From: Lytechinus pictus | Taxonomy: Eukaryota | DNA length: 64,000 nt | Direction: 5' to 3' | Assembly: GCF_037042905.1 (NCBI RefSeq) | Contig: NC_087252.1 | Coordinates: forward strand, 4,466,001 to 4,530,000 | Shown here: positions 11,864 to 63,991 of the stretch, one piece after another | How positions within the stretch are numbered: position 1 is the first letter of the stretch | Layout of the letters: every line of letters begins with the position of its first letter | Program-made: the position numbers and the translations under genes | The notes under the pieces: model-generated | Told to the model about the DNA's origin: nothing | The model's input: the letters and a program-made list of their open reading frames with translations, nothing else | The model's database searches: none

Positions 11864-11947
11864 GGCTGCCTTCCTTCGGCAGTGTAGTTAGCTGGTTGTT
11901 TTCCACCAATCATCAACCAGCTTGCTGCAGGGCCCCAGGAAGGAGTC
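11864..11947 (+). ncRNA. mir-34: microRNA hairpin, miR-34 (mature 5p arm 11877-11898, CGGCAGUGUAGUUAGCUGGUUG), intronic in POLR2H
   Basis: miR-34 seed GGCAGUG plus the conserved UUAGCUGGUUG 3' half. Star arm CAACCAGCTTGCTGCAGGGCC; lower stem CCTTCCT/AGGAAGG; basal UG at 11863-11864 (-14) and CATC at 11955-11958. Confidence 0.95.
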
Positions 11948-14900
11948 TTGAAATCATCAGAGGGTCAACATCAAGGAGCAGGTCTTCTTCATCTGTGCAA
12001 GTTTGAACCAGGGAGTCATTCATTGGTTCCTGTTTGAACCACCAATGCTTTTACATTAAACCTACAGCATTTTGTGCGAGGGCATACATCTACAAGCAGA
12101 AACTAATGTGATGTTCTTGCATACACGTATAGTCCTTTAAGATTCTGGGAATTATCAGTAGCTGGCGCTATGTCAGGATAGCAGTGGAAATGTTCTCATG
12201 GAGAAAATCTAAAAATATGGCTGTCCACATTGTGAATACTATTTGCTTTTCTTTTATCTACGCAACACACAACATGTAGGCCTACTGTTCATTTAGGCCT
12301 ACAATGTATGTCTACCTGAATTTTTTTTATGAAGGATTTTTTCTTCACCTGTTTTTTTTTTTTGCTTTGTACTGTTCATACTGATATATATAAACGCTCA
12401 GTGTACAAATTCAAAGCAAATTACTCACTGACTCGACACAGATGCTGTATTTTTCTTTGTCTGATCAGAAAATTATTCCAGAGACACCCTAGAGTGTTGT
12501 ATCCTTCCAGCGAGGTTCCATTTCTTTATTCATGTCTGTTAATTAGACACTTGAGAAGGATATGTTGTAGTGTAGAGGAGATTTGCAATCCTGCATAATA
12601 GGCATGAAATATCAGTTCCTCTTGAAAGTATTTCCATGGTTCAGTCAATCCATTTGTTCTTTATTCATTTTATTAGAGTAGACGTGTCTCAACATGTCAT
12701 TGATACATTGGATTTGGGTTGTGTTGTTAGTAGATAGTCTGCAAGCGCAGACTCAAACGTGACGCTTTAACAAATTATACAATGTCTGCAGTTAAGACTA
12801 GACTCTTAACTGTGCCAAAGCAGCCTCAGTACATAGTGACTCTAGTCTAACTACTTCAGACCCTGCATTATGCACTAAGTGTAAACCAAAGGTCTGTGCC
12901 TGCAGTCTAGTAGGTAGGGGCTATGATATGTTTTGTTTGTTTTGTTTGTTTGGTTTTTTTTGGGGGGGTAAGATGATGATAATATACAATTTGCCGTCTA
13001 CATGCCCACTAGATGCAGAGGATGTTCCAGAGGTGATTGTGTCAGTGACAGACAAAGCTAGTCAAGACTCAACTCAATGATTTGGAAATTTATTAGGGTC
13101 TGCAAATGCAAAAACTCTGCCTATTGTCTTTTTACCCTGTTTCTGTTTCATTCCATCTCTCTTTATTTCTCTTTTTCGCTTTGATCACTTGAAAATATTT
13201 GGGGACAACCCCTCCCCTTTTAACCCTCGTCTATGAAATCTATAGAACTTCATAATTCCTCACCATCATTCCTAGGTTCTATTGAACTTTGAAGTGACTC
13301 ACTCTTATACAGAATGCACTACTGTGAGCATATAAGTAAATACACTGATGATGCATATAAGTTCTAAATTTTCATCATCATGGAAACTGTCCATCTTAAG
13401 ATAAATTGTCATCATTTCTGTTGATGATTCATGTTATTTGCCACATGATTATTTGTACGTGACTATTTCGATCATGCTCAATATATTGAAATGATGACAT
13501 TATTAGACTTAATATAAGATGTGGCATTTGAGGAAAATGATGGGGAGTTTCTAAAATGATACAACCATATACATGAAGGGGAAAGTGATTATTCTTCGAC
13601 TTTGTGTTTAAATAATTACAAAGAAATATGTTTGCACTGTGCAGTTGGGAATAAATCAGATTTTATTAAATGGATCGGAAATGAATAAAAAAATTGATAA
13701 GATTTATTACTGGTGCGAACAGGTCAGAAATAGCTAGTGTGAAAGTGTCTGCGTGAGGATGACTGGTAATGACATCATACACTGTAGATATAAACGAGGG
13801 ATGATTGTGACATCATCATTGAACTATGAAGCCTCGCAGAAGAGATGGGAGTAGTCTGTTTGGAAGAGGGGGGCATAAGATATCAAAATGTGACTGGTTG
13901 GTAATGGTTTGTGTGATTTGTATACTACCCATCCCCTTACCCTCAAATGTTCCTCCATCTCACTGCCCCCCCCCCCTTCTTCTCTCCCTCACTCTCCCCA
14001 ATCAACTCTCCCTCTTTCATTGATCTGCCACCACCCCCCCCCCCTTGCCCCCGCCCCCTTTTCTGCATCTCTCCTCTTTCTCCCACTCTCTGTCTTCCAT
14101 TTTATAAATTTCTATTAACTGTCTATCATTCATCTATCCATATATCCCTTACATCTGTCTCTTTTATTTTTTTATGTTTTATGTGTCAGTTAATCTCTTA
14201 AAATCTGGCTTTTCATAATTATGTGTGAATGTTTGTGCATGTCCAATGACATATTTCAACCTATCCCACCCCTTTCTCCCGCATGCTATCTTATTTTAAA
14301 TCCTACATGAAAAGTATAATTCATATCATGTTATTATTATCATATTGATTGTTAGTTATCTCGGGCTTAGGGCCCAGTGGATTAATGAATCACAATTTAA
14401 TCATACAATAATTAGAATAAACAACAACTTTGCAATTAACACAGTACATCCAATTTGCACAAAAAACAGTTCATTTGTATGGAAGGTTTTATTTCTCTGT
14501 GCGTCTCTCCCATGCATACGAGAGATGAATCATGACCCTAATAATAGCTGATTACATCCCAGTCACTTTACTCTGATCTGCCAACAATGAAGAGTATTCA
14601 ATATCAAATGTCAAGAAGTCGCCCATCCAGACTTGAAATAGTAACGATTAGTCTTCATGTTGTCGTATCTACATGTATGCTGTAAATGACCAGCCCCTAA
14701 TGTTTCAAGATTGTTTTACTCTAATGACAGTGAAAACCATAAGTTACATCCAGGGGTGGATCCAGGATTTTCCAATGGGGAGGGGCACATTTGTGGTTTG
14801 GTATTTTTTCAGTTAATATTTTTAGGTTATTTGATGTTAATAATGTTTTTTAAACTCATACTGATCTTCACCTAATTTTTCTATCATTTTAGCAAAAAAA

Positions 14901-17563
14901 CGTTTCTCTTGTGATAGAGGTGATGTGAGGATGGTTTATAAAAGTGGGGGGATGTTGTACCTGCAGCACATGATTGTAGTGTGATGTTAGAGAGAAAAGT
15001 AGGTAGCTATAAAATAAGGAGGATCTAGGCCTAATTGTAGATAAATATAATGATAGAGGAAGAATAAGGAGAGAATGAAATTAAAGGCGAACTGCAAAGT
15101 GTGCTGGTCTTGCGGGAGATAGAATATATCAGTAGAAAGAGCGAGAGAGAGAGAGAAAGATCGACGGAGGTCATTCTTTATGACATTGGGTTTTGGTGTC
15201 TCACTATTTCCTTCATTGGACTGTGACCCCCCCCCCCTTCCCCCCCCCCCCCCCGCCAATCCCACTGCATGGTCTGTTTCAACCAACTCGTTCTCGCTTT
15301 CATTCATCAGGTTTCATCCACCCACTTCCTATCTAGTTTACAGGATACAATCTTGTCCTTGGCGTCTATCTTCGTCTTATAAAGCAAGGCCCCACACTAA
15401 CACCGGGCCACTGCTAATGTCAAGCCTTGCATAAAGCATTCATGTGAACCTCAACCTGAGACAATTCCCCCCCCCCCTCCTCTAAATGAAAAAAAAACCT
15501 AATGACTTGTATCATGGAATTATCTCAGATATAATAACTCGGTGCTTATTTGCCTACCGGTATCCATTGCTATTTCCCATTATCTCATTCTCTCCTTGGT
15601 TTGTTTTGTTTATTTGTTTTGTTCTCTTTTTTTGTCTTTTGTATAAACTTCCACCATACGTCTTAAGTTATGACAATCTGTCTTTAGATGGTTATCATTC
15701 CCCTCTCCCAATGGCCTTACTACACCTGCACCCCTCTCTTCCAGTTTAATCCTCACCCCTTTCCCGATCATTCCCCTCCTTGCTCCAGCCTGTGCCCCCT
15801 TCTCAGAAACATTTATTACCCGTATGAATATCTTCCACTTGCCCCTTGTACCAACTCCTGTATCATGCCTTTACCCCCACTTCACCCCCAAAGAATCCTT
15901 ATAATGCTGTTTGTATTCTCCTGTTCTCTCATTGTCATCTTTTTATTTGTCCTCATTGCAACTTCATTTTTATGTCGAAATATGGGATTATAACCCTTGC
16001 TCCATTTGTGTGTATGGCTTAACGACTTCCACCATCACAGCCTCCTTCAAGCTTTATAATTCTTCATCCTATTTATATTTTCATCTTAACTTAAGGTCTT
16101 TTACTGATCGGATGTGCCTCTGTCATGTTGAGTCATACATTATAATAGTGATGAATCTGTGTGTGAGTGAGTTGGAGTCCATGGCACAGAGGCTAAATTA
16201 GGAGAGAAATAATTTGTAGAAGGTGGCATGCATTAGTCACCGAAGATGACTGGGTCTGCATCACTCCAAATCATCTATTTGCTCCAACGATGACTTTAGG
16301 ATGAGATGTGGATAGATAGGGAGGAGGAAGAAGAGACAGGATGATATCTTATCCATTGGGATGGGGTGGTGGTGGATTAAAACGGGGGTATTACTAATTA
16401 TTGGACAGTTTGAATGATACAGACTGCATCATTCAATGAGATCAGGATGAATAGGTTGTAAAGGGGGAGGGGTGGTCAACATCTCATCCCATATTATGGT
16501 GGATTAATTGGATACTAGTAGTCCAGTATGATACTGCTTGCATCAATTCAAATCATCTTTTATTCTGCTCCAGCTATGACTTGGGGACATGTTTGTTAAG
16601 TCGGGAATAAATTCATGTAATATGGTATATTGTTTAGGGGTTATATGGCACTTTAGGATGAGATGGACGGCATGGTGGATTCATGTAGGCCTACCAAAAT
16701 TATTAATACATACATGTAAGTGACATTTGGATGAATCATGAAAAGGGGAGAATATAGTTAAATCAGCATGAAAAGTAACTTTAGTTTGTACATTGTTTCT
16801 CTCCGACTTGAGAGTTGAGACCGAGTCACAGTACTGCCTCTTTTTACCAAAGAAATGATTCAAGCCTATTCTCACATGACCCTATTTGACCTCAAAATCG
16901 GGGTTCTGCTCTTTTTCAGAAGCAGAAGTTATTGATTTCCAAGAATTCTTTGAACTTTAACCCTGTGCCAGTATATGAGGCACCTTTTCAAGTTGAAGTG
17001 AATAGCAAAGGGGGCAGATTCATAAAGCATATTTGGGGCTTACTACATATTTTGTTTGTATATTTATGTTATATGTTTCTTACAAGCTACAAGCATTTAA
17101 TCATTTGAATGCGCAACAACAATAACAAAACAAAAATAACTCTTAGGATGGTTCATATTCAGGCTAAAATTGGACCTGTGTCCATTAAACCCATTAGCAG
17201 ATTAGGGCCTATGTGGTCTAATCAGGGTATTGTATGTGTAGGTCATTATGTTCTGAAAGTTGATTTATTTTACAATTTTTTGTTAAAAAAGGAAATGATA
17301 TACATTCATGCATTTTATATCATATTCCAGAACGGTTTAGATAGTTATTTGGTGATTACATGTCGATAAAGCTGAAGTCATATCTTTTTTAACAGTATTA
17401 GTTATTGGCACTTTGACACTCCTCCAAGCTCTCTCATTCTTTCTTTTTCTTGTGCGCCTCGGAATAGAATATTCCTAGTGGATGGTGAGGTATAAATGCC
17501 TACTATTAAATGCCTATTATTATTAATCATTTTCTCTTCTCTCTCTCTGTCTCCGTTCTACAG

Positions 17564-17681
17564 GTCTGCCTACATGTCCTATGGAGGTCTCTTGATGAGG
17601 TTACAGGGCGATGCTAATAACTTACATGGCGTAGAACTCAACCAGCAAGTCTACCTTCTCATAAAGAAACTAGCCTTCTAA
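17564..17681 (+). CDS. POLR2H: RPB8 final coding exon
   Basis: Pyrimidine tract plus ctacAG at 17563. Phase joins the previous exon (TT|G = Leu). Encodes [38 protein letters not shown], the conserved RPB8 C-terminus. Confidence 0.97.
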
Positions 17682-26551: not shown

Positions 26552-26654
26552 TCAAAGCACAAGGTTTTTCTGGCTCCTTTCCTCAAGGGTTTTGTCAAAC
26601 TGGTCAAGTTCATCCATTGCATTCATGGCTTCATCATCAAGGATCTCATAGTCA
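26552..26654 (-). CDS. HOATZ: HOATZ exon 6 (last)
   Basis: ttgcAG acceptor; (D)DYEILDDEAMNAMDELDQFDKTLEERSQKNLVL*; phase consistent with exon 5. Confidence 0.8.
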
Positions 26655-27583
26655 CTGCAATGATACAACCAATAACATTATCATTCAAGTATGAAAGTTT
26701 CTGGAAATGAAAAATCAATTTCAGTATCACTGTAGTCCGAACATTTCGCATCACATATTATATGGCATGGATGTCAAACAAATTTTAGAAATGATCTAAT
26801 AATAAATCTAGATCATTTCGAAAATCTGTTTGACATCCATGCCATATAAAATCTAAATGATTTAATAGAAAGTTTATTCCCAACACTTTGTTTATGATGT
26901 TGCTTTACATTTTTGATAAAGAAAGGTATTAATAATCTTGAAAGTATGGTAGGAAAAGCAGTATATGATTTAATATGCATAAACTCCTAGAATATCTTAT
27001 CACTTTCAAGAACCACAGGCAGGCAAAAATTAAACAATAAAATACACCTCAGGCATGTGTTTCATAAAGCTGTTTGTACATAATACGAGCGAATTTACAA
27101 AGAAATGGTGGTCCTTCCTTGTGCCCTAAATCGCTATCAATGAAAATCATACAAATCATTTTCCGAAGTCACTTGTAAATTACCAATGAAAGGATTGTGG
27201 GTAGTTCCACGCATAAAAAAAATCATTTTTGATCGACAATAAACATATCCTATCACTCATTTCTTACATGTACCTTTGATTTTGACATTCTATTTTGCCT
27301 ACCAAGGTTTGGAAAATTAATACAATTAAGAATCATGTGAACAGACAATCATCTGTCACAATATTAAGAAGTTAACTTTAGAACAATTATGCATAGACAA
27401 GACAGATCAGAAAAAATAATGCATGAATTAAAGAATAATGTTATTTGCAATGTGTGTGTGTGTGTTTTTTTTTTTGGCTGATATAAGGTGTGTTACTCTT
27501 CCCGGCCCAATAATGGCATGTATATCTTGAAGAGAAAAAAATTAAAAGTTTGTTTAAGTGATGTCACGAAGGAGAAAACTTAC

Positions 27584-27630
27584 TCTTCTGGTACAAGGGG
27601 CTTCCTTGTTCTATGGGAAATCTTCTCTTT
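27584..27630 (-). CDS. HOATZ: HOATZ exon 5
   Basis: tttcAG ... GTAAGT; KEKISHRTRKPLVPE, resembling vertebrate KELISLPYKPK. Confidence 0.82.
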
Positions 27631-28079
27631 CTGAAAACCAAAATAAAAATCAATAGTTTGTTGATAAGTTTTCAATGTTATCATGGACTTATTCAAGCCA
27701 TGATTTCTCAAGAGCATAGAGATGTCATTAAATACTCAACCAAATCAGAGAGAGCATCATGTAGTAAAAAATTCAGTTCAATATTTATTCAATCAATCAT
27801 TCAATGAAAAAATACAAAACAGCCTTAAAATAATTTTCCATGATGGAGTACTCAGTCAAAACTTTGCTTGAACATTCCTTCAATATCTCAGAGTAGATCA
27901 TTTGACTTTATTTCAGACATTTCACTACTTTTTTTTTTTTAAACATTGATCTGTATTTATAACTCTTTAATTCACTGATCTCAAGCTTAAAATGAAAATC
28001 AGGACATAATACTACAACGACTCTGTTTTGGGTTGTTGTTTTTTTTCTGATCAACATCCTGCAATCATCCATTTCCTAC

Positions 28080-28139
28080 CTCTTTTCTTTCAGCTTGTCT
28101 TTTCTGATGAATCATTCTTGTCTCTTGCCTCTTGATAGC
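28080..28139 (-). CDS. HOATZ: HOATZ exon 4
   Basis: ttaAG ... GTAGG; AIKRQETRMIHQKRQAERKE, phase 0/0. Confidence 0.82.
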
Positions 28140-28294
28140 CTTAACAAAAAACAAGTCATAAGACAAAAGGTTACGCATAACTTGCCAGCTGGTGCAACAA
28201 ATGATTTTGGAAGAAAAATTAAGCTCATATACAAAATTAAGCTCATGTACAAAGCAAGAAGGAAATCATTATTTCATGCATATTGTTCAACATG

Positions 28295-28858
28295 CCCCCC
28301 GGGGGGACGAGTGGATACCATGCGCGACCAAAAAAACACGTAAAAAGGATGTCTTTTTCAAGATAGGGCACGTTACGTACGTAACGTAATAAGGGTGTAA
28401 AAAACACTAAAATAATGAAAAAAGGGTATCTATTTTCGCTAGGAAGCTACGTGTTTAGGGTCAAATTTGCGAGGGTATAAAAAAATAAGACTAAAATGTT
28501 TTATAAAGGATGTACTTTTTTCCCCACGAATCAACACTTCGTGTTTAGAGTACGATTTGCGCGAGGTGTGGGAGGTGGGGCTGTACTAAACCCAATGATG
28601 TAGGTAAAGGTAAAATCAACGACCGATCGACGTCTAATTGAAATATCGATGTACTTGTTTAGGGGTTCAATTCAGGGAATACTTGCCAATAGAATCGTTT
28701 TGTTTCCAATACTTGTTAAGGGTAGGGTTTTACACGCCAATACTTGTTAAGGGGTGCATTTTCAGTATATGGAAAATACGTGTTTAGGGTGCTTTTCGAG
28801 ACCCCATGGTCGCGCATGGTATCCACTCGTGAATGGAAGTGGCCCCCCCCCCCCCCCC
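28295..28858. mobile_element. Non-autonomous DNA element with C/G-run termini
   Basis: Perfect 24-bp inverted repeat ACGAGTGGATACCATGCGCGACCA at 28307-28330 / 28807-28830. Confidence 0.7.
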
Positions 28859-28919
28859 AGAATCAGATTATTCATCTGAAATAAAGAATCAAGTTCAAAC
28901 TTTTGTTTTAATCAGTCCT

Positions 28920-29091
28920 GGTGGGTGTTTCATTAAGCTGTTTGTAAAGTTACGCACAACTCTACGCAAGACTGGGACATGTTCTTAGGTCATAAATCAA
29001 TTATACAGGGATATCACATAGCACAAGAAAGGATCACCAGTCGTGCGTAAAGTCATTTGTATCTTACAAACTGCTTTATGAAACACCCACC
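28920..29091. mobile_element. Short MITE (family also at 58446-58628, about 58663-58807 and about 27052-27180)
   Basis: TIR GGTGGGTGTTTCAT / ATGAAACACCCACC; several related copies in the window. Confidence 0.7.
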
Positions 29092-29923
29092 TGCTTATTC
29101 AATAATGATAATAATGATAGGAATTTATCTAGAAATAATCTATTTGGAGGCGCACTATCATTACAATGTAGAATAAGAATTAATGGTCAATGGATTTATC
29201 AGGGCTATTAGAAAAGAGAAAAAAATGTCAAGGGAGCCAATTACTTAATGAGTGCAAATACATGTACATGAGAGAACCTGTAACACAAAGCTTCATACTC
29301 ATCATAGAAGAATATCTTTACAATTGATTGCATTGACTACAATGTACAATTCATTGTGAAAATCGAGCGTATGATCAATCGCTAACCTCTGTGTTACGGG
29401 ACCTTGATCGCCTAAACTTTTGATTTTTGTTGAGGTGGCAGCACTAATAAGGGTTCGTCTTTCTAGCTGCCTTCTCATTCTTATTAAGCACCTCTTCTTC
29501 TAATGTATTTTCCAGATTGTGATAAAGATTGCATTTTACAATTCTCCTAGCATCGTCTCTCAACTTTGAATGTACTTTTGTATTGAATGTGATCAATTTT
29601 ATCACTTCAAGGACAGCAGAAGACATATCTTACAGTTTGAAGCTTTGTCAATGACAATCTTGTTATAGTTCGGCCAATAATGATGATGATAATTAATAAT
29701 GTTAATGCTAATAATGATAATATCAAAGATAATTAGATGATGATTATGATAATGGGGAGAATGATGATCATGACAAAAACAGTGAAATTGAAAAAAATGT
29801 AAAAATAAATAAAGATTCATCATCATTAATTAAACATACTATGCTATGAAACATTTACTTATTTACAGCGCTTACTATTTTTAAGAGCTGCATACAAATA
29901 CCAAGACAATGGCTTAGTGGAAG

Positions 29924-30268
29924 TGTCGTGGACTCATGGTGTAGTGGTTCAGTCACTTGACTCTTAAACCAAGGGTCAGGGTTCAAATCCCACCCGGCAG
30001 TAATGTCCTTTGGCAAGGCACTTATCCACGTTTGTCACCTCCACCCATGTGTTAAATGGGTACCCAGTAGCATGTGAACATCAATGTGTTTAGATTGGCA
30101 TGTGTGCACCAATAAACATTTGCCTGGCCAAGATACTCCCCAGGGAATGGTGATGGTGCACTTTATGTGCTGAACAGTGATGGATCCTATGACCAGGGTA
30201 ATAATAATGTAAAGCGTTTAGAAAGTAACGTATGAAGCACTATATAAATGTAACTATTATTATTATTA
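29924..30268 (+). mobile_element. tRNA-derived SINE with CORE-like centre and L2-like (TAT)n tail
   Basis: A-box-like TGGTGTAGTGG, B-box-like GGTTCAAATCC, central GTCCTTTGGCAAGGCACTT...AAATGGGTACC, tail GCACTATATAAATGTAACTATTATTATT. Confidence 0.75.
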
Positions 30269-30383
30269 TAAACTTCACATACTGTCTCAGCTGAAAAATT
30301 GCCAAGCATGACTAAAACTTGACAGGCAGGAATACCATGACAAAACATGATCTGATAAAATGCTTCGCTTTGTAATTACTCAC

Positions 30384-30454
30384 CAGTTTTGTTAAATTTT
30401 CACTTTCTTCATAGACCATCTGTGCATGGGCTTTAGTAAGGAACGCTCTCAACT
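30384..30454 (-). CDS. HOATZ: HOATZ exon 3
   Basis: cacAG ... GTGAGT; (K)LRAFLTKAHAQMVYEESENLTKL. Confidence 0.82.
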
Positions 30455-30924: not shown

Positions 30925-30963
30925 TTGGGTCATCTTGTTCTGGTGCGTGAGCATAATTTGGAT
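30925..30963 (-). CDS. HOATZ: HOATZ exon 2 (39 nt)
   Basis: ccatAG ... GTAAGT; phase 1/1; (D)PNYAHAPEQDDP. Confidence 0.72.
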
Positions 30964-39745: not shown

Positions 39746-39753
39746 ATATCCAG

Positions 39754-45798: not shown

Positions 45799-45961
45799 GG
45801 ACATGGGCTATTTGGAAAACTTACTGGAGCGGCAAGCAGACATGATCCACTATCTCAAACTACACACTGCATATCTCAGTAAAAAGATCCTACGGCTGAC
45901 ACGGCTGACACGGCTCACACATCCGTCTGGTGGGAATGCACTCAACAGTATGCAAGCCTAG
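45799..45961 (+). CDS. TMEM192: TMEM192 exon 6 (last)
   Basis: ttcAG acceptor; (R)DMGYLENLLERQADMIHYLKLHTAYLSKKILRLT...MQA*. Confidence 0.92.
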
Positions 45962-52649: not shown

Positions 52650-52699
52650 TCATCCGGTATCATTGAGTGTGAGGACAGAAGCAAGTGCCTTGGCATAAG
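52650..52699 (-). CDS. CCDC15: CCDC15 exon 8 (last)
   Basis: ttcAG; (A)YAKALASVLTLNDTG*. Confidence 0.85.
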
Positions 52700-53153
52700 C
52701 TGAAATGGAGAACGAAAGTAATAAAAAATTTGATTACATGAGAACTAAAATAGAATCGTAACTACTTACTTTTCTTTTTAAATTGCAGATTTCAAATAAT
52801 ATCTACCTAAAAATAGTGAACCAATGACAATAGTTACATTTATATAGTGCTTCATACATAATGTTTTTAATGCTTAACATTGCAATTATTCAATTCCATT
52901 CAATTTATTCAAATTCCTTTCAATAAAAACACAAGATACAATATCAGAGAAATACATAATTGGTAACAAAGCAATTAAATATACATTAATACAAAATGAA
53001 ATTTGGGAGAATGTAAAAGACCGAAACAGCTTGACGAGGCAGACCCCGAGTGCCATCATGGCAATACATACATTGGCATGATGAAACAAAACAAAAGAAA
53101 TAAAAGACTGGATCAAATTGATACTGAATCAACCATATTTATAACTGTCATAC

Positions 53154-53302
53154 CTTTAGGATTCTTATAGAAGATGCAGTTATTAGCACACGTCTCTGGA
53201 TTGGCATCCCATACAGATGGTCCGCAGGCACACAGGGGCGGAGGAGTGATGCCTAATAACTTGATACGCTCTTTCATCATTGCTCGCAGTGCATGGATAA
53301 AC
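53154..53302 (-). CDS. CCDC15: CCDC15 exon 7
   Basis: tacAG ... GTATGA; FIHALRAMMKERIKLLGITPPPLCACGPSVWDANPETCANNCIFYKNPK, the conserved Cys-rich CCDC15 C-terminus. Confidence 0.93.
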
Positions 53303-54092
53303 CTGTAAATTATTCACACAAAGTCAATTTTAAAAGTAAATTCTACATGTGGCAACAACACAAGAGTTAGAAAAGAAACCCAAAATGACCACCCAAGAAA
53401 GTATTTACCCAATGAGTCCATGATTCTACTCTCGGAGAGATGAAAATATTGTACAATGCCTACTTAGCTTGCTGTACACAAGCAAATGGGAGGCTGAATG
53501 TCAAACATTCGTACCATTGCACGGCTTTAGGAGGTGACGTCACAATACGATTTAATTCATTGCGCTCAATACGCGTATAGCCTGCTGGCTAAATGCGCAA
53601 TGCTTCCCAAGGTCATGTGCGCTTGTGGGATTTTGCTTTTAGCTTTCAATGTTTTTGCTCCCTTTTCATAGATTACTGCTGGGAAAAACTCTTGTTTTTA
53701 AAAAATATTTTTGCTAAATTCCGAGGCGTTGTACAACACAAATAGGGAATATTCATATTCGTGCAATGGTGCGAGATTTCGCATTCGGTGAAAGAGACGC
53801 TCTATTCAACTCTGCTAGCGCCTCGTTGAATCTTTCTTTCTTGAATCTTTCTTTCACCTCATGCGAAACCTTGCATCATCGCACTCATGCCTATTTGCTA
53901 TTTGTATACTATCATGGCATTTTGTGCCAGATAGACCTGTCATAATCTAAGCCAAATTGATACACAGTCCCAAACATGCTTAAGTGTGTTGGCTTTTTAG
54001 CATAGATTCCACTATTTCACAGAAGTTTAGTTTGATAAACTTGGGGAGACCTACAATGATATCGTAACAATTAACCTTCAGTTCACTACAGA

Positions 54093-54408
54093 ATTATTGA
54101 GGTATAAAACTAGTATTCATGGTCACAATTTACGCAGTTCAATGGATCCTCTGCTTTTACAGATCCCATCCTTCAAAATGAAAGTAACGCGAGGTGATCG
54201 AGCAGTTGCTTGTGCAGCCCCTAAGCTCTGGAATAGCTTACCCCTGGAAGTTAGGGAAGCACCATTCGTAAACAACTTTAAATAAAAGCTCAAAACACAT
54301 CTATCTAATCAATAACAAGCTTTTTAGGAGTCCTAAATAGCACAGTAGAATATATACTTTATGGAATAGTTTCTGCGCTCTATAAATTTATATATCATTA
54401 TTATTATT
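54093..54408 (+). mobile_element. L2-group LINE 3' stub
   Basis: Encodes NLRSS...RGDRAVACAAPKLWNSLPLEVR...KLKTHL and ends with a GCGCTCTATAAAT...(TAT)n tail. Confidence 0.75.
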
Positions 54409-54729
54409 TAAAAAAAATGATTGCTTACTGCAACTACTTTAGTTTAGATTAATTCCAAAGTCCTGTACAATAATCCTGCTTTTGATGCCATCCAAGAATA
54501 TTTACATGACTTTTTAATTTCTTCTTCAGTTGGTTTATAAACATATCTACATGTAGATGTTGGTTGAAAGTTATAGCTGATATAAAATTGTTCATTTTGA
54601 GTCTGCAATATGATGAAACAGCAGTAGGTGACAGCGCCGTTACCAATGTTATCATGCTGTCATGAACATAAATTCCCCATGAAAACTGAAGCTTGACAGT
54701 CTACTCAATCTCAACCGCTACAACCATAC

Positions 54730-54909
54730 CTCTTTGTTTCTTTATTCTTTTGTCTGAGTCTAGTCTGTATCCTGTGAATTTCTTCAGTTTCTTCTGCTTC
54801 TCTCTGTTTCCTATCGTAGTCTGTCTCTCTCATGATGTCAGGTGGGTGACTCATCAGATGTGATTGGTGCTCTACCTCATGTCTCTCCTGCTCCTTGGCT
54901 TTCTTCAAC
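54730..54909 (-). CDS. CCDC15: CCDC15 exon 6
   Basis: ttgcAG ... GTATGG; LKKAKEQERHEVE...QKNKETK(R), coiled-coil. Confidence 0.88.
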
Positions 54910-55566
54910 CTGCAAAATAAAATTCAAAAGTTGTATTGCCACACGTGCCTATAATCATGCCTATAATCCAAGCTAGATGGTGGGGGGAGGGGTAGTCTGC
55001 TGTGCAAACCCTTCACTCGAGTAAAGGGTCTGAATTGCAGCCTACTCATGCGTTGTGTACTGAAGGCCCTCCTGAATTGAAACAGCAAGTTTTGTATGTG
55101 CTAGTCTTTGTGTGGAGACACACTCGTTGATCAAAGTTTCAATCAGGGTCTGGGCCTGCAGACTAGTGGGGGGGGGGTCAGATGCAGGAAAATTTGATGC
55201 AGGATTTTAAATCAGCATCAGAAATATACTACGAGGGCGACTTTGCCCTCATGACAGCCAAAATTGCCCTAAAATTCTCATAATGGAATGCTTAAGGCAA
55301 ACATCTTTCCTTAAGTCCCCCAAGATTAGTCACAAACTATATAGACCTTATGCCCATGACGTCATATTCTCAGTGTCGTCCCTTAGAGGATATAGGAATA
55401 TGTGTAAATGGAGTTATCAGTGATGCAGCAGCAGCAAATCACCAATGCATGCAGGGAAATTGCATCAGCTTCTGAGATGGCAGCGTGATGTGAATGCATA
55501 AGGTCTATATTCAAGATTAAATGTTTCCTCAATAACCCAGAAGCAACATACCAGGATCATGCAAAT

Positions 55567-55848
55567 CAGGGCTCCGTCTTACAAAGAGTTACGATTAATC
55601 CGATCAACCTCAACTATATGGAAATCTATCTACATGTATGTCACATATTTGTCTACTGTACAGGAAATTGCAAAATGTCCTTTGAAAACAAAGAGAAGCA
55701 CACTGAATTTTTAAGAAAATGATGGATGTATGAAAATATGTCATATCTAGAATATATTATGAACATGCATTTAAGATGTTGACTTTGCTGGCTTTCCCTA
55801 GTTGTGATTGATTGGATCAATTGCAACTCTTTGTAAGACAGGACCCTG
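55567..55848. mobile_element. MITE
   Basis: Inverted ends CAGGGCTCCGTCTTACAAAGAGTT / AACTCTTTGTAAGACAGGACCCTG. Confidence 0.65.
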
Positions 55849-56093
55849 TTTTACTACAAACTGCCTGAAATTAGGCTCGATTATGTTAACACACAATGTG
55901 CACTGAACAATGAACAATATCAAGCCAGAATAGGACTGGGAGTGTTTCATGAAACAAAGTCAGTGATTTCCAGCGAAAAACTAGCTCTGAACCAATCAGA
56001 TGCATTGATTTCAGTAGCTTATAACTATTTGTTTCATGAAATGCTCCCCTGAAATCAGGCAAAAGCCTTGAAGACTGGCATCACTATACTTAC

Positions 56094-56197
56094 TCCTGCA
56101 TCTTCTTGTGATGTGTTTTTTTTCTCATGTTCTCTCTGACTTGTTCTCTTTCTATGTCCATGTAGAGTCTCCTGTACATTGAGAACTGCATACCATG
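56094..56197 (-). CDS. CCDC15: CCDC15 exon 5
   Basis: ggcAG ... GTAAGT; HGMQFSMYRRLYMDIEREQVRE..., the CCDC15 RRLxMDIEREQV motif. Confidence 0.92.
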
Positions 56198-56244
56198 CTG
56201 CCATAAAGAAAAGAGAAAAGTAAAGTTAGTTCACCAAAATAAGG

Positions 56245-56572
56245 ATACAAACCCTCTCGTAATCTTCGTTCAATCACTGACACATGCAGACTTTACATTC
56301 CCTTGTCAAAACTCTCCTCTGACGAAAAGTTTTGCTGTAGCAGCTGCCAAGACTTGGAATGCCATCCCTCTTCCAATAAGAAATGCTTCCAGTATTCTTA
56401 GCTTCAAATCTTCCCTTAAGACATACCTTTTTCCTCAATAATTAATTTCCCTTTTTATCTTGAATATTGTGGTTAGTATTGCAAATGTTAAATTATTTTC
56501 ATACATTGTACGCGCTATGGTACTTTTTGTTTTTAGCGCCTCTAAATATCCATTATTATTATTATTATTATT
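56245..56572 (+). mobile_element. L2-group LINE 3' stub
   Basis: YKPSRNLRS ... AAAKTWNAIPLPIRNASSILSFKSSLKTYLF (frameshifted), with a (TAT)n tail. Confidence 0.75.
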
Positions 56573-56718
56573 AAAATATATTTCAGTTCAAGGAAATTAT
56601 CAATCAACTTTTGGTCGAAAATCAAACCACAATTATGAGTACAGTACATTATAAATATGGTAGAGTAGTTAGAGTCTGCATGTATTCTTGGGACCACAAA
56701 AATTTGTACGTTGGACTC

Positions 56719-57222
56719 CAGGGTTGGGCTCAATTACAAAGTAAATGATCAATAACGTAATTAATTAAATTTTTAGAGTAATTGTTATTGTATTTGAAAT
56801 TTTGAAAGGGAAAGTAATTGTAATTGAAAAAAAAATGTAGTTGACTTCAATTAATGTCAATTACTTTCAATTACATTAAATTACTTTACAATAAAATTAC
56901 TTAATGTATGATTTAATCTAATGACCTTTTTTCATGTTAACTGCTTCAGCATCAAAGAGTGTAATAAGCAGAATACGCGCTCTTTAACAGAAACCATCTT
57001 GTCAGTCTCTCTGTAACTTAGAATTATATTGAAATAGGTGGTGCTAGTACATACAGAATACAAACTGATTTCATGTACATGTATGACTTTTATAGAAAGT
57101 AATTCTAATTATAATTGACAATTGAAAAAAAATTAATTTTATTGAAAATTAATTGTAATTAAACATTTCTTCAATTACGTAATTGCAATTGTAATTGAAA
57201 AAAGTAATTGAGCTCAACCCTG
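56719..57222. mobile_element. hAT-like MITE with GTAATTG subterminal repeats
   Basis: TIR CAGGGTTGGGCTCAATTAC / GTAATTGAGCTCAACCCTG; perfect 8-bp duplication TTGGACTC. Confidence 0.9.
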
Positions 57223-57461
57223 TTGGACTCGGTGAAATGCAACAAACAACTGTTTTGCACGTTATAGTCTGAAAACATGCTTCTTGTGGAAGGTCTAAAG
57301 CGGCATCATGTCAAAAAAGAGGGGACGGGTCATCATGTGCCCCTTTGCCCCCTGGACTGGATCCGTGCCTGTTTAAGAAAACCGAATAAGTGAAAACCTT
57401 GCGCACTGCAGTGCTAATGGTTTAGCAATGACCCCCCATCGCAGTAACATGTAACCCTCAC

Positions 57462-57974
57462 CTGTCTTCTAAGCTCTTCAGCTACCACACCTGGGTTGAC
57501 CTCTGGCACATGACCCTTGACCCCATCAGCCATTATGACATGACCTTTGACATCTCCACCACCATTGTAATGGCTGTAAGGTATATCTTCCTGTGGATCA
57601 ACTCTGAGGTTTGTCGAGTCAGTCTCAGGGTGAAGACCCTGAAGGTCACCCATGTCTTCTTGGTCCCCGTGTCCATGGTAATGACCTTCGACCCTTGAAC
57701 TTTGCTGAGGTGACCTCTGAAGTCTGGGGGCAAAGGTCACATGCTTGGACTTTGCAACCTCTCCTGCTTCTCTGATCTGGTGGTGTGGGTCACTCCCACT
57801 GCTCTCATCATAGAGTCCTTCTTCTATGGCGTCATGGACAAGTCTTTTATCGCTCTCAGTGGTTGCAGTCGTCTCAAGGTCAGCGACCCAAGATGTAGAA
57901 TCCGTTGGATTGCCATCAGCTTCCTTCAAATAGGATGTTTCCCATATACCACCTGGAACAGTATGATGATCAAT
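57462..57974 (-). CDS. CCDC15: CCDC15 exon 4
   Basis: ttgcAG ... GTGAGG; 513 nt open, phase 0/0; IDHHTVPGGIW...PGVVAEELRRQ. Confidence 0.85.
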
Positions 57975-58964
57975 CTGCAATATAATGAAAGCCAAAAAGA
58001 AGAAAATTGAGAAATGGGATACAACTGACTTTCTCACGTGAACTGTATTAGTAAAAGATTGAACACCAAGAACTGATTCTCTATTTCATTAAAAAATGTA
58101 ACTTTACCAGCACAAACTATGTGAAGAATTGCCATTGACAAAAATCTTATTTCAAGCAATACCTACATGTACATGGCTTTTCTAAAAGGTCGACTTTGTA
58201 CATGCAATTCTTGTTACCTTTGCAAACACCCGAGGACCGTATTACAAATGTTTTCAGCACTAACTGAATTGTCAGATCTGACAATTTCAGAGATATCCTT
58301 TGACTGACTGAGAATCACTGGTCATCTACTGTTAACAAGTATGGTAGCAAGTCAGAGAATGGCAGCTTGTCTATATTGACAACTTTCACTGCACTGCCAA
58401 GGGCTCTGTCATCCACAATAATCAATGGAATCAATAAGGAAATCAGGTGGGTGTTTCAAAAAGCTGTTTGTAAGTTAAGAGCGACTCTAAGAACGACTGG
58501 AGATCCTTTCTTTTGGCGATCCTTTCTTCTGGTACGCACCATTGGCGATTGTTTAGCGAGTAAGAAAGGATCACCTGTCGTTCTTAAAGTTGCTCTTAAC
58601 TTACGAACAGCTTTATGAAACGGCCCCCTGCTCCATGATCAATTGTTTTTTCTTATGTTACGGGGCCCGTTTAATAAAGCTGTTTTGTAAGAGCGACTTT
58701 AAAAAGGACTGGCAAACCTTTGCTAAACCATAGCCAATTAACATTTACCACAAGAAAGGATCACTAGTCGTTCCTAAGTTACAAACAGCTTAATGAAACA
58801 CCGACCTGGTTTGAATGCATGTGGAAATATAGAGTATGCGAGTATTGACCACTTCTATTGAATCAAAATATTCTTCATACTGTACTTGTCATACCTTAAC
58901 AATAATAGCGCATATCACTGCCAAATGCGTCCCTTTTGAAGGAAACAGTATGAGCATTTTTTAC

Positions 58965-59237
58965 CTTAGGCTTGATTGCCAGCTGTTTGGCAGCCAAATC
59001 ACGCTTAGCCTTCTGCACCAGTCTCCTTGTCATTCCAGCCTGTTCTCTGACCTGCTGCCCAACAGCCAGTCCCCTATCACCTTGTCCATCACTCCCCCAG
59101 GCCTCTGGGGTCGGCTTGGGAGCATCCCGACCTATGGCATGGGGCTCGCTATTCTGGTAGATACAAGTGTCTTTGCGATGAGAGAGAATGTTGGCCGAGG
59201 GTGTAGTGCGGTGGACGACTCGACCTTGCAAATTCAC
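58965..59237 (-). CDS. CCDC15: CCDC15 exon 3
   Basis: ctaAG ... GTAAAA; VNLQGRVVHRT...KAKRDLAAKQLAIKPK. Confidence 0.85.
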
Positions 59238-59751
59238 CTTAGTGAGAGGAATATGAAAGATAGGGAAACAATTTTCAATTCAATTTCGTTTACATATCCA
59301 CAATCCAACATGTACATGTACTGCATATCACATCTTTTTTTAGTCATCATTCAGTTGTACATGAGACTTTTAATTTAATAAATATCAATTATCATTCAAT
59401 CAATATCATTACCATCTTAAGCAATGATTCCTAATTTCAAAAAGTAAATGACCAAATCCACTTTTTCTTTACTCCTCAAATCATCAAGGTAAGCTTTACT
59501 GAAAGTGATCTGGTAAAACTTTATTACCGCCAAGGGTAACGGGTTATAGGAGAAAATAAAAATGGCAAATTCCTGCCATCATTTTTGTATACCTTGTATG
59601 GTTTCTTCAAACTTTCACCGCTCTGTTTTTATTATTTTTGCCTTAAAATTATAAGTTAATCAACTCAATTTATTGCCAAGGTTGGATTCTGTTCTAAGAT
59701 GGCAAATACAGAAGGATCCTAAATTAAAAAAACCAAAAACAAAACACTTAC

Positions 59752-59901
59752 CGCTTGAAAAGACTCTTGGAGTTGTTTCTGTTTCTTAATCCGTTGCAGT
59801 TCCCTGACCCTTGACCTTACTTCCTGTCTGAATTTTGCAAGCTTCGCTTCTTTCTCTGCTTGTAGCAAATGCAGACGTTCTTCCTCATATTGGGCTGACA
59901 C
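59752..59901 (-). CDS. CCDC15: CCDC15 exon 2
   Basis: ggtAG ... GTAAGT; VSAQYEEERLHLLQAEKEAKLAKFRQEVRSRV...QLQESFQA. Confidence 0.9.
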
Positions 59902-61057
59902 CTACCAGGGGACACAAAATGTACAAAATAAAAAAGATGAAAAAAAAAATTCAAATGGTCACGAGATTAGGATGTGCAGGTAGCAATCAAAGGAAAAAAA
60001 TGGACATGACATTTTCTCCCAAACAGAAAAGTGAGCACAAGCGTGGAGTGCAAGCATAATATTATTCTATAGGTCTAAAGTTAAGTAACCTGAAAGTTCA
60101 ATTTTCAATTCATTTTTTTCTTCAAAATTTGCGATATTCAACTTCTTCCTTTTATTCACTCATTCACTATTTCTTATTTTTCTTTTCTGCTCATCATTCT
60201 GACTTCCTCCACTTTTATCTCTTTTTGGTGCCAAAAATAGGGGATCCCACAACTTCAGCCTCCTGGATCTTCTTTATGTTTAACTACATAATTATCACAA
60301 ATATCATTTTGAGAGAAAAATGCAGATACTACAAAATTGCAAATTTCATAACAAAATGTTCTCATCTCATGGAACATTGTCTAAATAGATGTCAGAAATT
60401 ATCCTGCCAAAACCTTTTATTTACCTACTTCTGTGAATTCTCATTTGAATGACATAGTATTCATTTATTACTTTGTTTTTCCTGTTTTTAATTTTACATG
60501 TTCATATATGATCAAGATAATTAGATATGTATTTTTTGTTCAATTATTTACCAATTCATTAATTCGTATCTGTCTAGGCCTAGATCTATTTATTTAATTT
60601 CATGATTTTCTAGCCCCCGGCCTCTTTTGCTCAGTTGGTCTCCTTCTGCTTACAACTACCGGGTATCTCTCCACTGTCTCTATCTTACACTCTCTTCCAA
60701 AAAGCTTAACTTCCTTCCCAAGTTCTTTCTTTTAAAATTTTTGACTTTTTGGTAATTTTTCTAACAAAATAATCATTGATGATTTACTTGCGTAAATTTC
60801 CATTTAAAGTCTTTAGTCAAACAAAAACAGTTGAAGTGGAAAATTTAATTTACAGAAATAGTCTTGGTCTACTCCGATGTAAATCTAGAATGACTAAACT
60901 TAAGAAGGTTCTAACAGTTAGATCTCTGACTAGATCTAACGTTAGATCTAGATCGAGATTATGTACTATGGTCTATTTAGGCCTAGCCTAGTCTCTCCAT
61001 ACACAAATAAAAAACATAAAAGAAAAGAAAAAAATGAAAATAAAAGAAACAAACAAC

Positions 61058-62587
61058 CAGGGTGACCAGACGTCCCGTATTTTGCTCCTGTGTCCCGGCG
61101 TCCCGACAAACCCTTCCTGGGACACATATTTGTCCCATATTTCAGAATATTGAACAAATTATAATTAATACATACATGTATAGAAAAGTGAAGAATTTTC
61201 ATCAAATAACCAACAGTTGACGAAGCAGAGATGACAATAAAATCGATAACTGTTAATTTTTGCAAGTTCTGCGGTGATTTTTTTGTTACCCAATACATTA
61301 CAAACGAACTGGCCTCCTGCCTGTGTGTGGCTGGCTACTATAGCTAGGCATGTAAGAACGGAGCAGATTCTCAATGGTGCGAAAAATCTCACATGATAAA
61401 CAGTTTTTCCACCAAAATAATCACAAAATCGGCAGGAATTTTTATAATTATATTATGGATTCTCAGATTACTGATTTGGTGATGTAATCGGAGGAGAAAG
61501 TTATTGAGTTGTTGCAGCTTTCGTTTTGAGTCTTGTTGTGATCGGTGCGAACTTGTAATGGGATGAGAGATGCCTGTGTGTGATGCTGTGAAGTTTGAAA
61601 ATGTTTTATTTTGAATTTTATTCATTTCTAAAACATTTTTAGTTTTTTAAGATTTTTTTTTTGAAAATACATTTTTTTTTAATATCATTATCGATTTTTG
61701 TTAAGATTGGATTTTTTTGTTTGCTTAAAGTTTGAACTTTTCCTCTCTCTTTTCTATCCTTATTCCTGCTTGACTTTTTTTGTTCCATATATCTTTATTT
61801 CAAATCTTTCCTGTCTTTCTCTCTCTGTTCATTTTACTTCTTTCCTTCATCTATTTATTTCCCTTTTTATTTCCTTCATTCTTTCTTTCCTTAAACTTGT
61901 CTTTGCTTTCTTCTCCACCTTCCTCTCCCTTTTCTTTTTGTTCTTTCTCTCCTTCCATTATTTTCTTTCTTTTTTTCATTCTCTTATCCCTTCATTCTTT
62001 CCTCCCTCTCTTTAATTTATCCTTTCTTTCTTTATTTTTTCCTTCCAATTCTTTTCCCTTATTCTTTCCTTCCTCCCTTCCTCTTTCTTTCAAAGAATAG
62101 AGGAAACATTTTCTTTCCTTCATTCTTTAATTTTTTCTTCCTCTTGTTTTCTTACTTTCTTTTTTCCTATCCTTTATTTTTTTTCTTTGAACTTCACACA
62201 TTAATTCCCAGTCTTTCTTTTTCTTTCTTTATTCATTTCAAAGAATGACGGAAACCCTTTTTTTTCTTTCATTCTTTTCTTATTCTAACTTTCTTTCTTT
62301 TTTTTTTCTTGTTTCCTTCATTTTCATTGTCATTTTCCCCTTCATTTTTTCTTCTTTTCCTCTCAATTAATCTCTTTTCTTTTCTTTCTCTCCTTCATTC
62401 TTTCAATTTCATTCACACTTTCTTCCTTTTCTTTATATTTTTTGTGCAAGTCTAACACTGTGGTCTGTGTAGCCTTATTTGTTGATTTTTATTTACTAAG
62501 AATAAGACCCAGTTCGGTCGATCCGCTCATGCAGCATGCTTTGTTGTCCCATATTTCATTTAATGAAATCTGGTCACCCTGGCCCTG
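61058..62587. mobile_element. Non-autonomous hAT-like element (1.5 kb) with CT-rich interior
   Basis: CAGGGTGACCAGA ... TCTGGTCACCCTG plus an extra GCCCTG; 8-bp CAAACAAC at 61050-61057 and 62588-62595. Confidence 0.8.
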
Positions 62588-62759
62588 CAAACAACAGAAG
62601 AAGAAAGGTCTAATTTATTGAAAAAAAAGAATGAGAGAGAAAAGGAAAATGCAACAACAACAAAAAAAGTTTAAAAATTAGATCGAACAGTTAACGTTAG
62701 ATCTAACTTAAGTTAACAGTTACTAGATCTATTCTAAAGACGTTACGTTGGCATAAAAT

Positions 62760-62877
62760 TACCTCAGGCGATGTTCGTGCAGGCTCCACTCCACTTCACT
62801 ACCGCTACACTACGCTCCACCTACTAGTGTAGCGGTAGTGAAGTGGAGTGGAGCCTGCACGGACATCGCCTGAGGTA
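62760..62877. repeat. 118-bp near-perfect palindrome (TA-flanked mini-MITE) in CCDC15 intron 1
   Basis: 53-bp arms with one mismatch, a 12-nt spacer and TA at both ends. Confidence 0.85.
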
Positions 62878-63215
62878 GCATGAAATCTGACTAAGTCTGA
62901 TCGAATGAGAAAGAAAAAGAAAACTCAAAAATATGAAACTTTGAAAGAAGCTATCAAATTCTTTAATAAAAGCTGAGGTAAAAATAGTCAATTCTCACTG
63001 GTTGCCATCAAAGGTCAAAACCAAGGAAAGAAGAAGCTTTCATTTTCACTGTCAGTGTCAGTAACCAAACGTCGTGGGATCTGCTCGAGCCCCAGGGCCA
63101 GGCACAACCCACAACGCCCATGTTCAACACAGCCATGGCTCGCCAGTCATCCCGGCCCGACGAGACCCCGTGCGATGCGCGATGCCGATGGAGCTTTAAA
63201 AAAATGCAAACTTAC

Positions 63216-63362
63216 CACGGCTGGGAATGCGTCATTATCATTTTGTGGACAATGCTCAACCCAAGCACCAACTGGAACAATTTCATTCGGTCGTCTGTCA
63301 AGGATCCGCTGTGTTTGACGGTGAAATTTACTATTTTTCGGTCTATAAACTTTAGAATTCAT
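63216..63362 (-). CDS. CCDC15: Coiled-coil domain-containing protein 15, first coding exon; eight exons total 1566 nt = 521 aa + stop (start codon inferred)
   Basis: MNSKVYRPK...RRPNEIVPVGAWVEHCPQNDNDAFPAV then GTAAG; IVPVGAWVE is the CCDC15 N-terminal motif. Confidence 0.87.
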
Positions 63363-63930
63363 ATTTTTAACTCGACCCACCTGTCGCAGCAAATTCGAAA
63401 CGCGAATGTTGTTTTCAAATTTACCGCTTACCCGGTATACGGTATCGATTAAAGATCGATTATGGTACAACCTTTAATTCCAGTCTCTTTTTTAAATTGA
63501 GATAAAATACATTATTTAGGAACATATTAAGCGAATCATATTTTTCAAAAATGTGATTTAAAATATTTTATTGATTCTAATTAGTGAATAAAAATTCAAT
63601 TCAATTATTTTATTGCAACATAATCTTCCGATGTTCAGAGACTTGAGTCTGGCAAAAAACTAAACTACAATTTTTCGTGATGAAGCCTATTTGATGTGAG
63701 GCCGCCTCTCTTTACGGCGCATGCAATTCTTATGTACACATGTCTAATTGGGAAATCACGAATCCTTGAAAGAGCTGTTCAAATTCCATGGGAGCTAAAT
63801 CTCAATATACTGGTACCAGGTACATGTATAACGTGTTAGTGTTAGTAGCTGAGCTGAGACTGAGACTGAATCCGAGTAAAAAAAAAGTCGTGGACGTGGT
63901 TGGCGTAACGTTCCAGACCTAGTTACAAAA
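63363..63930. promoter_or_regulatory. Probable bidirectional promoter between CCDC15 and TTC12
   Basis: Two divergent start codons about 570 bp apart, with locally higher CpG density. Confidence 0.55.
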
Positions 63931-63991
63931 ATGGAGAATTCATCTGAAAACGAAGAACTTCAGGAATTTCTTAGGAAGGTCGATGAACTGG
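63931..63991 (+). CDS. TTC12: Probable tetratricopeptide repeat protein 12, first coding exon (gene runs off the window)
   Basis: CAAAAATGG context; MENSSENEELQEFLRKVDEL then GTAAGA. Resembles the vertebrate TTC12 N-terminus (DLQKFLKNVDEI) as recalled, but only 20 aa are visible. Confidence 0.65.

Follow-up and report, generated by a model that had tools for sequence, protein, structure and literature searches.

RPB8, the host gene of miR-34, lies beside HOATZ in a sea urchin: a probable deuterostome-ancestral pair

The microRNA miR-34 has been published in two separate arrangements, one within the gene RPB8 (POLR2H) and the other, as miR-34b/c, within HOATZ; described here is a bridge between them. 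The bridge lies in a 64,000-nucleotide stretch of the sea urchin Lytechinus pictus (assembly GCF_037042905.1, contig NC_087252.1, here called C8, positions 4,466,001–4,530,000, in a genome of 812 Mb), which we refer to below as the window. In order along the window lie RPB8, which hosts both miR-2002 and miR-34, and then HOATZ, TMEM192, CCDC15 and TTC12. RPB8 with its miR-34 hairpin and HOATZ are a real microsyntenic pair, probably one that was already present in the deuterostome ancestor. The fuller account, which we judge reasonably likely when all of its parts are taken together, is that the miR-34/HOATZ pair is ancestral and has been kept, that the RPB8 host was relocated in the chordate stem, and that CCDC15 and TTC12 merely share an ancient chromosome with the pair. 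The features that carry this account are listed here by their positions in the window.

2328–2508, plus strand: RPB8/POLR2H coding exon 3 of 4 (PF03870, E 4.3e-13; tblastn)
6435–6502, plus strand: miR-2002 hairpin, in the same intron as miR-34 (Rfam RF03821, 101.6 bits)
11870–11942, plus strand: miR-34 hairpin, in the last intron of RPB8 (Rfam RF00456)
17564–17681, plus strand: last RPB8 coding exon, including the stop codon (PF03870, E 1e-11; gene model)
26552–31996, minus strand: HOATZ, 180 amino acids, six exons (PF17664, gene model, RefSeq identity)
31774–31996, 30925–30963, 30384–30454, 28080–28139, 27584–27630 and 26552–26654, minus strand: the HOATZ exons, with canonical splice sites

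The miR-34 hairpin belongs to Rfam family RF00456 (53.5 bits, just above the cut-off of 53.4; E 2.8e-9), folds at −45.1 kcal/mol (z −6.08, with none of 200 shuffled sequences equally stable) and has a single match in the genome; Dataset S1 of PMC11848845 lists a miR-34 locus for both L. variegatus and S. purpuratus. RPB8 has four coding exons spread over 55 kb. The first two fall outside the window, about 37.5 kb and 13 kb ahead of it, and both of the two exons inside the window match PF03870. The intron between these two (2509–17563) is the last of the gene and holds miR-2002 and miR-34 on the sense strand. In that intron and in the flanking loci, neither miR-277 nor miR-317 gave anything above cut-off. 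miR-2002 occupies the intron position at which protostomes carry miR-317, and the region around its hairpin (6423–6515) gives a weak score with the mir-317 model (18 bits, E 4.3), far under the cut-off. The RPB8 introns also contain near-perfect long inverted repeats (3601–3720 and about 10005–10470), probably miniature transposons, and Rfam matches at these two places are spurious.

The HOATZ model matches PF17664 at 62.3 bits (cut-off 25, E 5.5e-17) and is identical to the RefSeq-named HOATZ protein at 180 of 180 residues. The gene is single copy, with one match in the genome and an intact spliced frame; a PDB search returned no meaningful match. HOATZ and RPB8 are convergent, with their stop codons 8,871 bp apart, and the distance from the HOATZ stop to the end of the miR-34 hairpin is 14,610 bp. 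A sequence-only reading of this DNA had named HOATZ as the next gene after the miR-34 host, convergent and about 14.6 kb from the hairpin, and these measurements bear it out; its gene orthologies likewise hold, as judged from Pfam families and named relatives. HOATZ has been called vertebrate-only (Narita et al. 2020; PMC7132099), a scope into which the urchin protein, as a member of the same PF17664 family, does not fit. Database records name HOATZ in echinoderms and hemichordates, and also in a 54-member cluster made up mostly of molluscs. HOATZ thus predates the vertebrates, contrary to that report, and public annotation already names such members. For Amphiura filiformis, the records include a second HOATZ, located on a scaffold of 885 kb.

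Linkage in other species was followed by proxy, using contig sizes and the accession numbers of named proteins in 14 echinoderm and hemichordate species with both HOATZ and RPB8 (Saccoglossus, for which no RPB8 was retrieved, and Patiria, for which no HOATZ was retrieved, fall outside this set). By this proxy, the two genes lie on different contigs in none of the 14 species; they are on a contig of equal size in 12, with Diadema antillarum and Asterias rubens having no separate value, and they are tightly linked in six, as expected of conserved microsynteny. Their accessions are one apart in Lytechinus variegatus, in Apostichopus japonicus (in two assemblies, one of them as a 369 kb scaffold) and in the hemichordate Ptychodera flava, 7–10 apart in Diadema antillarum and 8–11 apart on a 1.57 Mb scaffold in Acanthaster, and in Anneissia both genes are on one 827 kb scaffold. 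The proxy thus makes RPB8 and HOATZ close neighbours in echinoids and likewise in one holothuroid, one asteroid, one crinoid and one hemichordate. Large gaps between RefSeq accessions were not counted as distance, since HOATZ and TTC12, which are real neighbours, are numbered 379 accessions apart in L. pictus and 913 apart in L. variegatus; in S. purpuratus and Holothuria, HOATZ and RPB8 are not comparable by number.

The link between miR-34 and RPB8 is itself well documented. It has been reported for the honey bee (PMC2394756), Table 2 of PMC11848845 has 34~polr2h at Bilateria and 2002~polr2h at Echinodermata, and Dataset S1 of the latter places miR-34 inside polr2h in oyster, L. variegatus, S. 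purpuratus, Patiria and Saccoglossus. The sequence-only reading had called this linkage a protostome one: the link exists, but it is not confined to protostomes, being published for echinoderms and a hemichordate. In a metagenome scan, the mature miR-34 motif was found in 39 contigs, 16 of which have RPB8 exons that place the hairpin in the last intron. The urchin locus thus resembles the published miR-34-in-polr2h and miR-317/277/34 arrangements in host, sense strand and last intron, and miR-2002 in the same host has already been tabulated; the next gene is unnamed in the portions of PMC2394756 and PMC11848845 consulted. The word ‘hoatz’ occurs nowhere in the main text of PMC11848845, and in the open literature, to which our search was confined, no paper was found to place HOATZ next to the miR-34 host of any invertebrate.

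In human, one methylation probe is assigned to the MIR34C body and at the same time to a point within 1.5 kb of the C11orf88 start (PMC4861808), and Dataset S1 of PMC11848845 has miR-34b/c inside the 5′ end of HOATZ, on the sense strand, in chicken, mouse, dog and cow; for the other vertebrates in that dataset the host is BTG4 or none. The adjacency of human MIR34B/C to HOATZ/C11orf88 is thereby corroborated. In mouse, both miR-34b and miR-34c fall within the annotated Hoatz span and miR-34b also falls within Btg4 (PMC11848845, Dataset S1). In the sequence clusters of that dataset, invertebrate miR-34 and miR-34b/c fall together (cluster 36), with miR-34a (cluster 98) and miR-449 (cluster 37) in clusters of their own. 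The two loci are alike in that miR-34 lies directly beside HOATZ, and other genes of the vertebrate chromosome map to urchin C8. They differ in that in vertebrates two hairpins in tandem occupy the 5′ end of HOATZ on the same strand as the gene, RPB8 is absent and BTG4 is arranged head to head, whereas the urchin has a single hairpin inside RPB8, past the 3′ end of HOATZ and on the opposite strand. A BTG gene with an intron inside its domain, the nearest of three BTG loci, is found at C8:6.34 Mb (L021:4803–5309), 1.86 Mb from miR-34; we take it to be of the BTG3/4 type. BTG4 is the other neighbour of vertebrate miR-34b/c.

How might one arrangement have given rise to the other? The first step, published already, is the origin of miR-34 within an RPB8 intron in early bilaterians. 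We infer that in the chordate stem, before the amphioxus split, the RPB8 coding gene probably moved to another chromosome, leaving the orphaned hairpin beside HOATZ, and that a local inversion could then have set the hairpin on the HOATZ strand at its 5′ end. In that place miR-34b/c could have drawn on a motile-cilia promoter, and BTG4 would have ended up head to head. miR-34b/c, rather than miR-34a or miR-449, would on this scheme hold the ancestral position. What kept the pair together was most likely its short spacing in genomes that rearrange slowly, with shared RFX-type elements a possible but weakly supported help. A figure title in PMC11848845 places loss of the miR-34~polr2h association at Chordata. 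In amphioxus, CCDC15 is found on chromosomes of 31.7–35.3 Mb and POLR2H on chromosomes of 19.4–23.5 Mb, and in the annelid Owenia the two are on a contig of equal size. In the urchin, ALG3 and PSMD2, which neighbour POLR2H in human, are found on C14 and C6, respectively. Taken together with the proxy linkage and the amniote records, the locus joins the RPB8 link to the HOATZ link and probably marks the ancestral miR-34 site, as had been suggested, with the ancestry applying to deuterostomes.

A number of points weigh against this account. The cross-species linkage is an accession and contig-size proxy rather than a set of gene maps, giving neither orientation nor intervening genes, and in six species the HOATZ and RPB8 accessions are 70–651 apart, which neither supports nor refutes linkage. 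The human map positions used are assumed, except for those of MIR34B/C, BTG4 and C11orf88. Relative orientation is not kept, the pair being convergent at the HOATZ 3′ end in the urchin and on the same strand at the 5′ end in amniotes, so that the account needs an additional inversion. Only in Ambulacraria and amniotes is the HOATZ link shown. No HOATZ could be placed in amphioxus, tunicate or cyclostomes, leaving the chordate bridge missing, and the amphioxus miR-34 copies are scattered and intergenic, none of them in cluster 36 (PMC11848845, Dataset S1), and on chromosomes other than those where POLR2H appears to be. None of the 39 miR-34 metagenome contigs has a match to HOATZ, TTC12, CCDC15 or TMEM192, although, with contigs that extend just 0.3–5.5 kb past RPB8, a missing HOATZ is informative only if some other gene comes next. 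This is so in six contigs, where the next gene is MRPS14 in four (three of them nearly identical), a member of the TMEM17/216 family in one and an ETF-beta-like fragment in one. Two final points favour a looser or larger cluster: Patiria CCDC15 is just 40 accessions from RPB8, and of the 13 conserved genes that could be named in the surrounding 1.06 Mb, four are ciliary (P 0.003–0.12, depending on the assumed background, or 0.02–0.26 when the anchor HOATZ is left out).

Two of the metagenome observations can be located more closely. MRPS14, a mitochondrial-type ribosomal protein S14, is convergent after RPB8 in contigs L024, L027, L039 and L050. The gene right after RPB8 at L053:2905–3345 belongs to the TMEM17/216 family (PF09799), presumably a ciliary transition-zone family.

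The Patiria spacing is among the evidence for a different view, namely that the whole stretch, miR-34, HOATZ, CCDC15 and TTC12, is an ancient co-regulated ciliary block with shared RFX/FOXJ1 elements that was broken only in vertebrates. The features involved, in addition to those above, are the following.

38636–45961, plus strand: TMEM192, 282 amino acids, six exons, the first of them predicted (PF14802; gene model)
52650–63362, minus strand: CCDC15, 521 amino acids, eight exons (gene model, spliced contig, relatives)
63216–63362, 59752–59901, 58965–59237, 57462–57974, 56094–56197, 54730–54909, 53154–53302 and 52650–52699, minus strand: the CCDC15 exons
63363–63930, no strand assigned: head-to-head interval between CCDC15 and TTC12, whose start codons are 569 bp apart
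63931–63991, plus strand: first coding exon of TTC12 (mapping of a named TTC12 protein)

TMEM192, CCDC15 and a probable TTC12 had been said to follow within 52 kb, and they do: the distance from the start of the miR-34 hairpin to the TTC12 ATG is 52,061 bp. TTC12 acts in dynein arm assembly and figures in reviews of ciliary dyskinesia. Three cilia or centriole genes thus stand among five consecutive conserved genes, with the ciliary gene CFAP68 a further 270 kb away; CCDC15 and TTC12 are head to head, and their interval is likely to be a bidirectional promoter. An X-box-like site at the HOATZ start and three near miR-2002 (see below) also speak for a ciliary block. Against it, TTC12 is on other scaffolds elsewhere: the older Apostichopus assembly has it on scaffolds of 323 and 355 kb, separate from the 369 kb scaffold that carries RPB8 and HOATZ, and in Diadema antillarum it is on contigs of 1.59 and 0.75 Mb, roughly 2,000–2,700 accessions away and probably on other scaffolds. 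CCDC15 is 333 GenBank numbers from RPB8 in Holothuria. TMEM192, which we take to have no known ciliary role and to lie at 4q32 in human, interrupts the block; the locus has three non-ciliary genes (DDX6, CHEK1 and an ARHGEF1/11/12 gene) less than 0.5 Mb away, and the ciliary gene IFT46, though on this chromosome too, is 30 Mb distant. No X-box-like pair is found between CCDC15 and TTC12 (although chance would give only 0.06), and CCDC15 is a general centriole protein, described in PMC10630097 as part of the inner scaffold.

More widely, RPB8, HOATZ, CCDC15 and TTC12 share a chromosome wherever chromosomes are assembled, but the members of the cluster do not stay together beyond what chromosome ancestry would give, with Patiria a possible exception. 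Five of seven human 11q23-24 markers are on urchin C8, spread over 0.03–34.5 Mb (RPS25 at 0.03 Mb, a BTG gene at 6.34, ZPR1 at 13.4, BUD13 at 23.5 and 25.4 and IFT46 at 34.5), versus none of three controls, ALG3, PSMD2 and a mitofusin gene, all off C8. DCPS, on C3, goes against this trend, and the ZW10 search matched nowhere, nor did its controls, and so is uninformative. For the controls, we assume human positions of 3q27 (ALG3 and PSMD2) and 1p36/3q26 (mitofusin). The double occurrence of BUD13 (23.49 and 25.36 Mb) is either a local duplication or an assembly duplicate, and IFT46 (C8:34520141–34520893) shows five near-identical matches to profile positions 137–175 at 159 bp spacing, a tandem exon-like unit. 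This is the pattern of macrosynteny and ancestral linkage groups (PMC7269912): human 11q23-24 genes on one urchin chromosome with their order scrambled.

Closer to the locus, a scan of 297 of the 806 candidate open reading frames (ORFs) in the 1.06 Mb gives an incomplete gene list, from which P450, UGT, NACHT, Ig, ABC transporter, URGCP, sulfotransferase and histone genes and mobile elements were dropped before counting. Of eight nameable flanking genes, four have 11q23-24 members (CFAP68, DDX6, CHEK1 and the ARHGEF1/11/12 gene) and four do not (UFC1, an OXSM-like gene, glycerol kinase and a titin-like gene). The probability that at least two of three further genes map to 11q23-25 is 0.10–0.50 at an assumed rate of 0.2–0.5. 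CFAP68 (C11orf1; L105:1944–2210, C8 about 4.208 Mb), the ciliary gene 270 kb from miR-34, is presumed to lie at 11q23.1 in human. Upstream of RPB8 are a single 2,259-codon ORF with URGCP-like GTPase domains (L020:1–6777) and a NACHT-domain gene (L016:8186–9805).

Macrosynteny accounts for CCDC15, TTC12, CFAP68, DDX6 and CHEK1, and does not account for the adjacency of HOATZ and the miR-34 host across classes and phyla. The claim that CCDC15 and TTC12 make the neighbourhood match human 11q23-24 beyond shared chromosome ancestry is therefore not supported, both genes being no closer than a shared ancestral chromosome would leave them; nor is the claim of co-regulation, with TTC12 away from RPB8 and HOATZ in other echinoderms and no X-box-like pair in the interval between CCDC15 and TTC12. 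The larger cilia block is probably ordinary macrosynteny, a four-gene co-regulated ciliary block is not supported, and we regard the block as an unlikely explanation of the locus. A known counterpart is the miR-449/CDC20B-CCNO-MCIDAS cluster, where co-regulation in multiciliogenesis has been demonstrated. There, too, a miR-34-family hairpin lies among cilia genes (miR-449 is located in CDC20B according to Dataset S1 of PMC11848845), but the urchin locus differs in that its extra genes are not kept together in vertebrates.

Quite unlikely, in our estimation, is an independent origin of the vertebrate adjacency, in which miR-34 left RPB8 in early chordates and a copy landed at the HOATZ 5′ end by chance or through the advantage of a ciliary promoter. 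The opposite orientation and the opposite end of HOATZ would both be explained in this way, and amphioxus miR-34 is indeed scattered and intergenic, which fits with bioRxiv 2021.09.01.458616, where MIR-34 is among three families without a place on the linkage groups of the chordate ancestor. Such a copy would, however, have had to reach, of all genes, the neighbour that the former host has in Ambulacraria. The prior for this is only about 0.3–5% after full shuffling, on our assumptions of 300–1,200 conserved genes per chromosome and 2–7 candidate neighbours, and the copy concerned would also have to be the paralogue that clusters by sequence with invertebrate miR-34. Very unlikely is an ancestral pair whose host disappeared by reciprocal loss after the vertebrate genome duplications, with 11q23 keeping miR-34 and HOATZ and 3q27 keeping POLR2H: microRNAs are known to be orphaned when a host is lost following genome duplication (PMC11848845), but the unduplicated amphioxus already has POLR2H and CCDC15 on chromosomes of different size and no miR-34 in polr2h, and the 3q27 neighbours ALG3 and PSMD2, like mitofusin, are off C8.

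Returning to the ancestral pair with a relocated host, a regulatory reason for its persistence was sought in X-box-like sites, scored post hoc as motif matches alone with one RFX consensus.

5929–7251, no strand assigned: three X-box-like palindromes flanking miR-2002 (starts 5929, 6121 and 7238; motif match)
32001–32015, no strand assigned: X-box-like site 5–19 bp before the HOATZ start codon, with one exact half site and one with two mismatches

The three sites near miR-2002 fall within 2.1 kb, where 0.22 would be expected from 264 kb, and may be candidates for an intronic promoter, an enhancer or a repeat motif. A further palindrome of this kind is present at 757–770. Sites like that before HOATZ number 28 in the 264 kb background, and no X-box-like pair was found before TMEM192 or RPB8. 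An excess over shuffles, four sites compared with 0.55, shrank against real flanking DNA, with four of ten sites lying in 64 of the 264 kb. PMC11076791, on urchin microRNA transcription, makes no mention of miR-34. It is possible, if rather doubtful, that the last RPB8 intron is an ancient RFX-driven ciliary control module common to miR-34 and HOATZ, which would have kept them linked from a time before the deuterostomes diverged and persisted after the host was gone; the role of miR-34 in motile ciliogenesis, and its co-transcription with HOATZ in vertebrates, would then descend from one ancestral regulatory unit.

The remaining genes of the window are identified as follows. PF14802 is matched in three of five TMEM192 exons scanned (56.1 and 34.2 bits against a cut-off of 25, with one match below it), and near the TMEM192 C-terminus (45890–45920) a 9-base unit occurs three times, giving a tripeptide repeat. 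Searches of Pfam, PDB and Atlas with the CCDC15 exons returned nothing, whereas exon 7 retrieved 213 relatives, and three of seven clusters looked up are named CCDC15, the other four being generic or nameless; the name is found in Patiria (UniRef), in Holothuria and for an amphioxus cluster. Both the N- and C-terminal blocks align, and a quick tree with no named vertebrate row groups the urchin protein with Patiria and Holothuria CCDC15. The exon 4 boundary was set from a spliced contig, from a run of unrecorded kind, that joins exons without introns. Read evidence on CCDC15 consists of bulk depth and contig pieces, splice joints being crowded out by repeats; in the exon bins, first mates of two RNA runs are almost exclusively plus strand, which fits a minus-strand transcript. 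An intron of the gene (about 62760–62880) contains a near-perfect long inverted repeat, by eye probably a miniature transposon. The named TTC12 protein maps in 16 pieces, so that the gene extends about 21 kb past the end of the window; it has N-terminal TPR repeats and an armadillo-type region, and six of nine matches are named TTC12, one of them from a bird.

What does the pair mean for miR-34 and HOATZ? The urchin and hemichordate arrangement offers an outgroup placement for MIR-34 and suggests that miR-34b/c is the copy that stayed in the original place. It is also a tangible example of how a microRNA can become an orphan when its host moves. If true, shared regulatory elements would explain the tie of miR-34b/c to motile cilia. 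In zebrafish, knockdown of miR-34b affects multiciliated kidney cells (PMC11166285). Since mouse miR-34b/c lie inside the annotated Hoatz span, miR-34b/c deletions should be checked for effects on Hoatz, and the overlap with Hoatz and Btg4 matters when knockout phenotypes are read. Finally, as HOATZ is not vertebrate-specific, sea urchin sperm and ciliated larvae are open as a system in which to study it.

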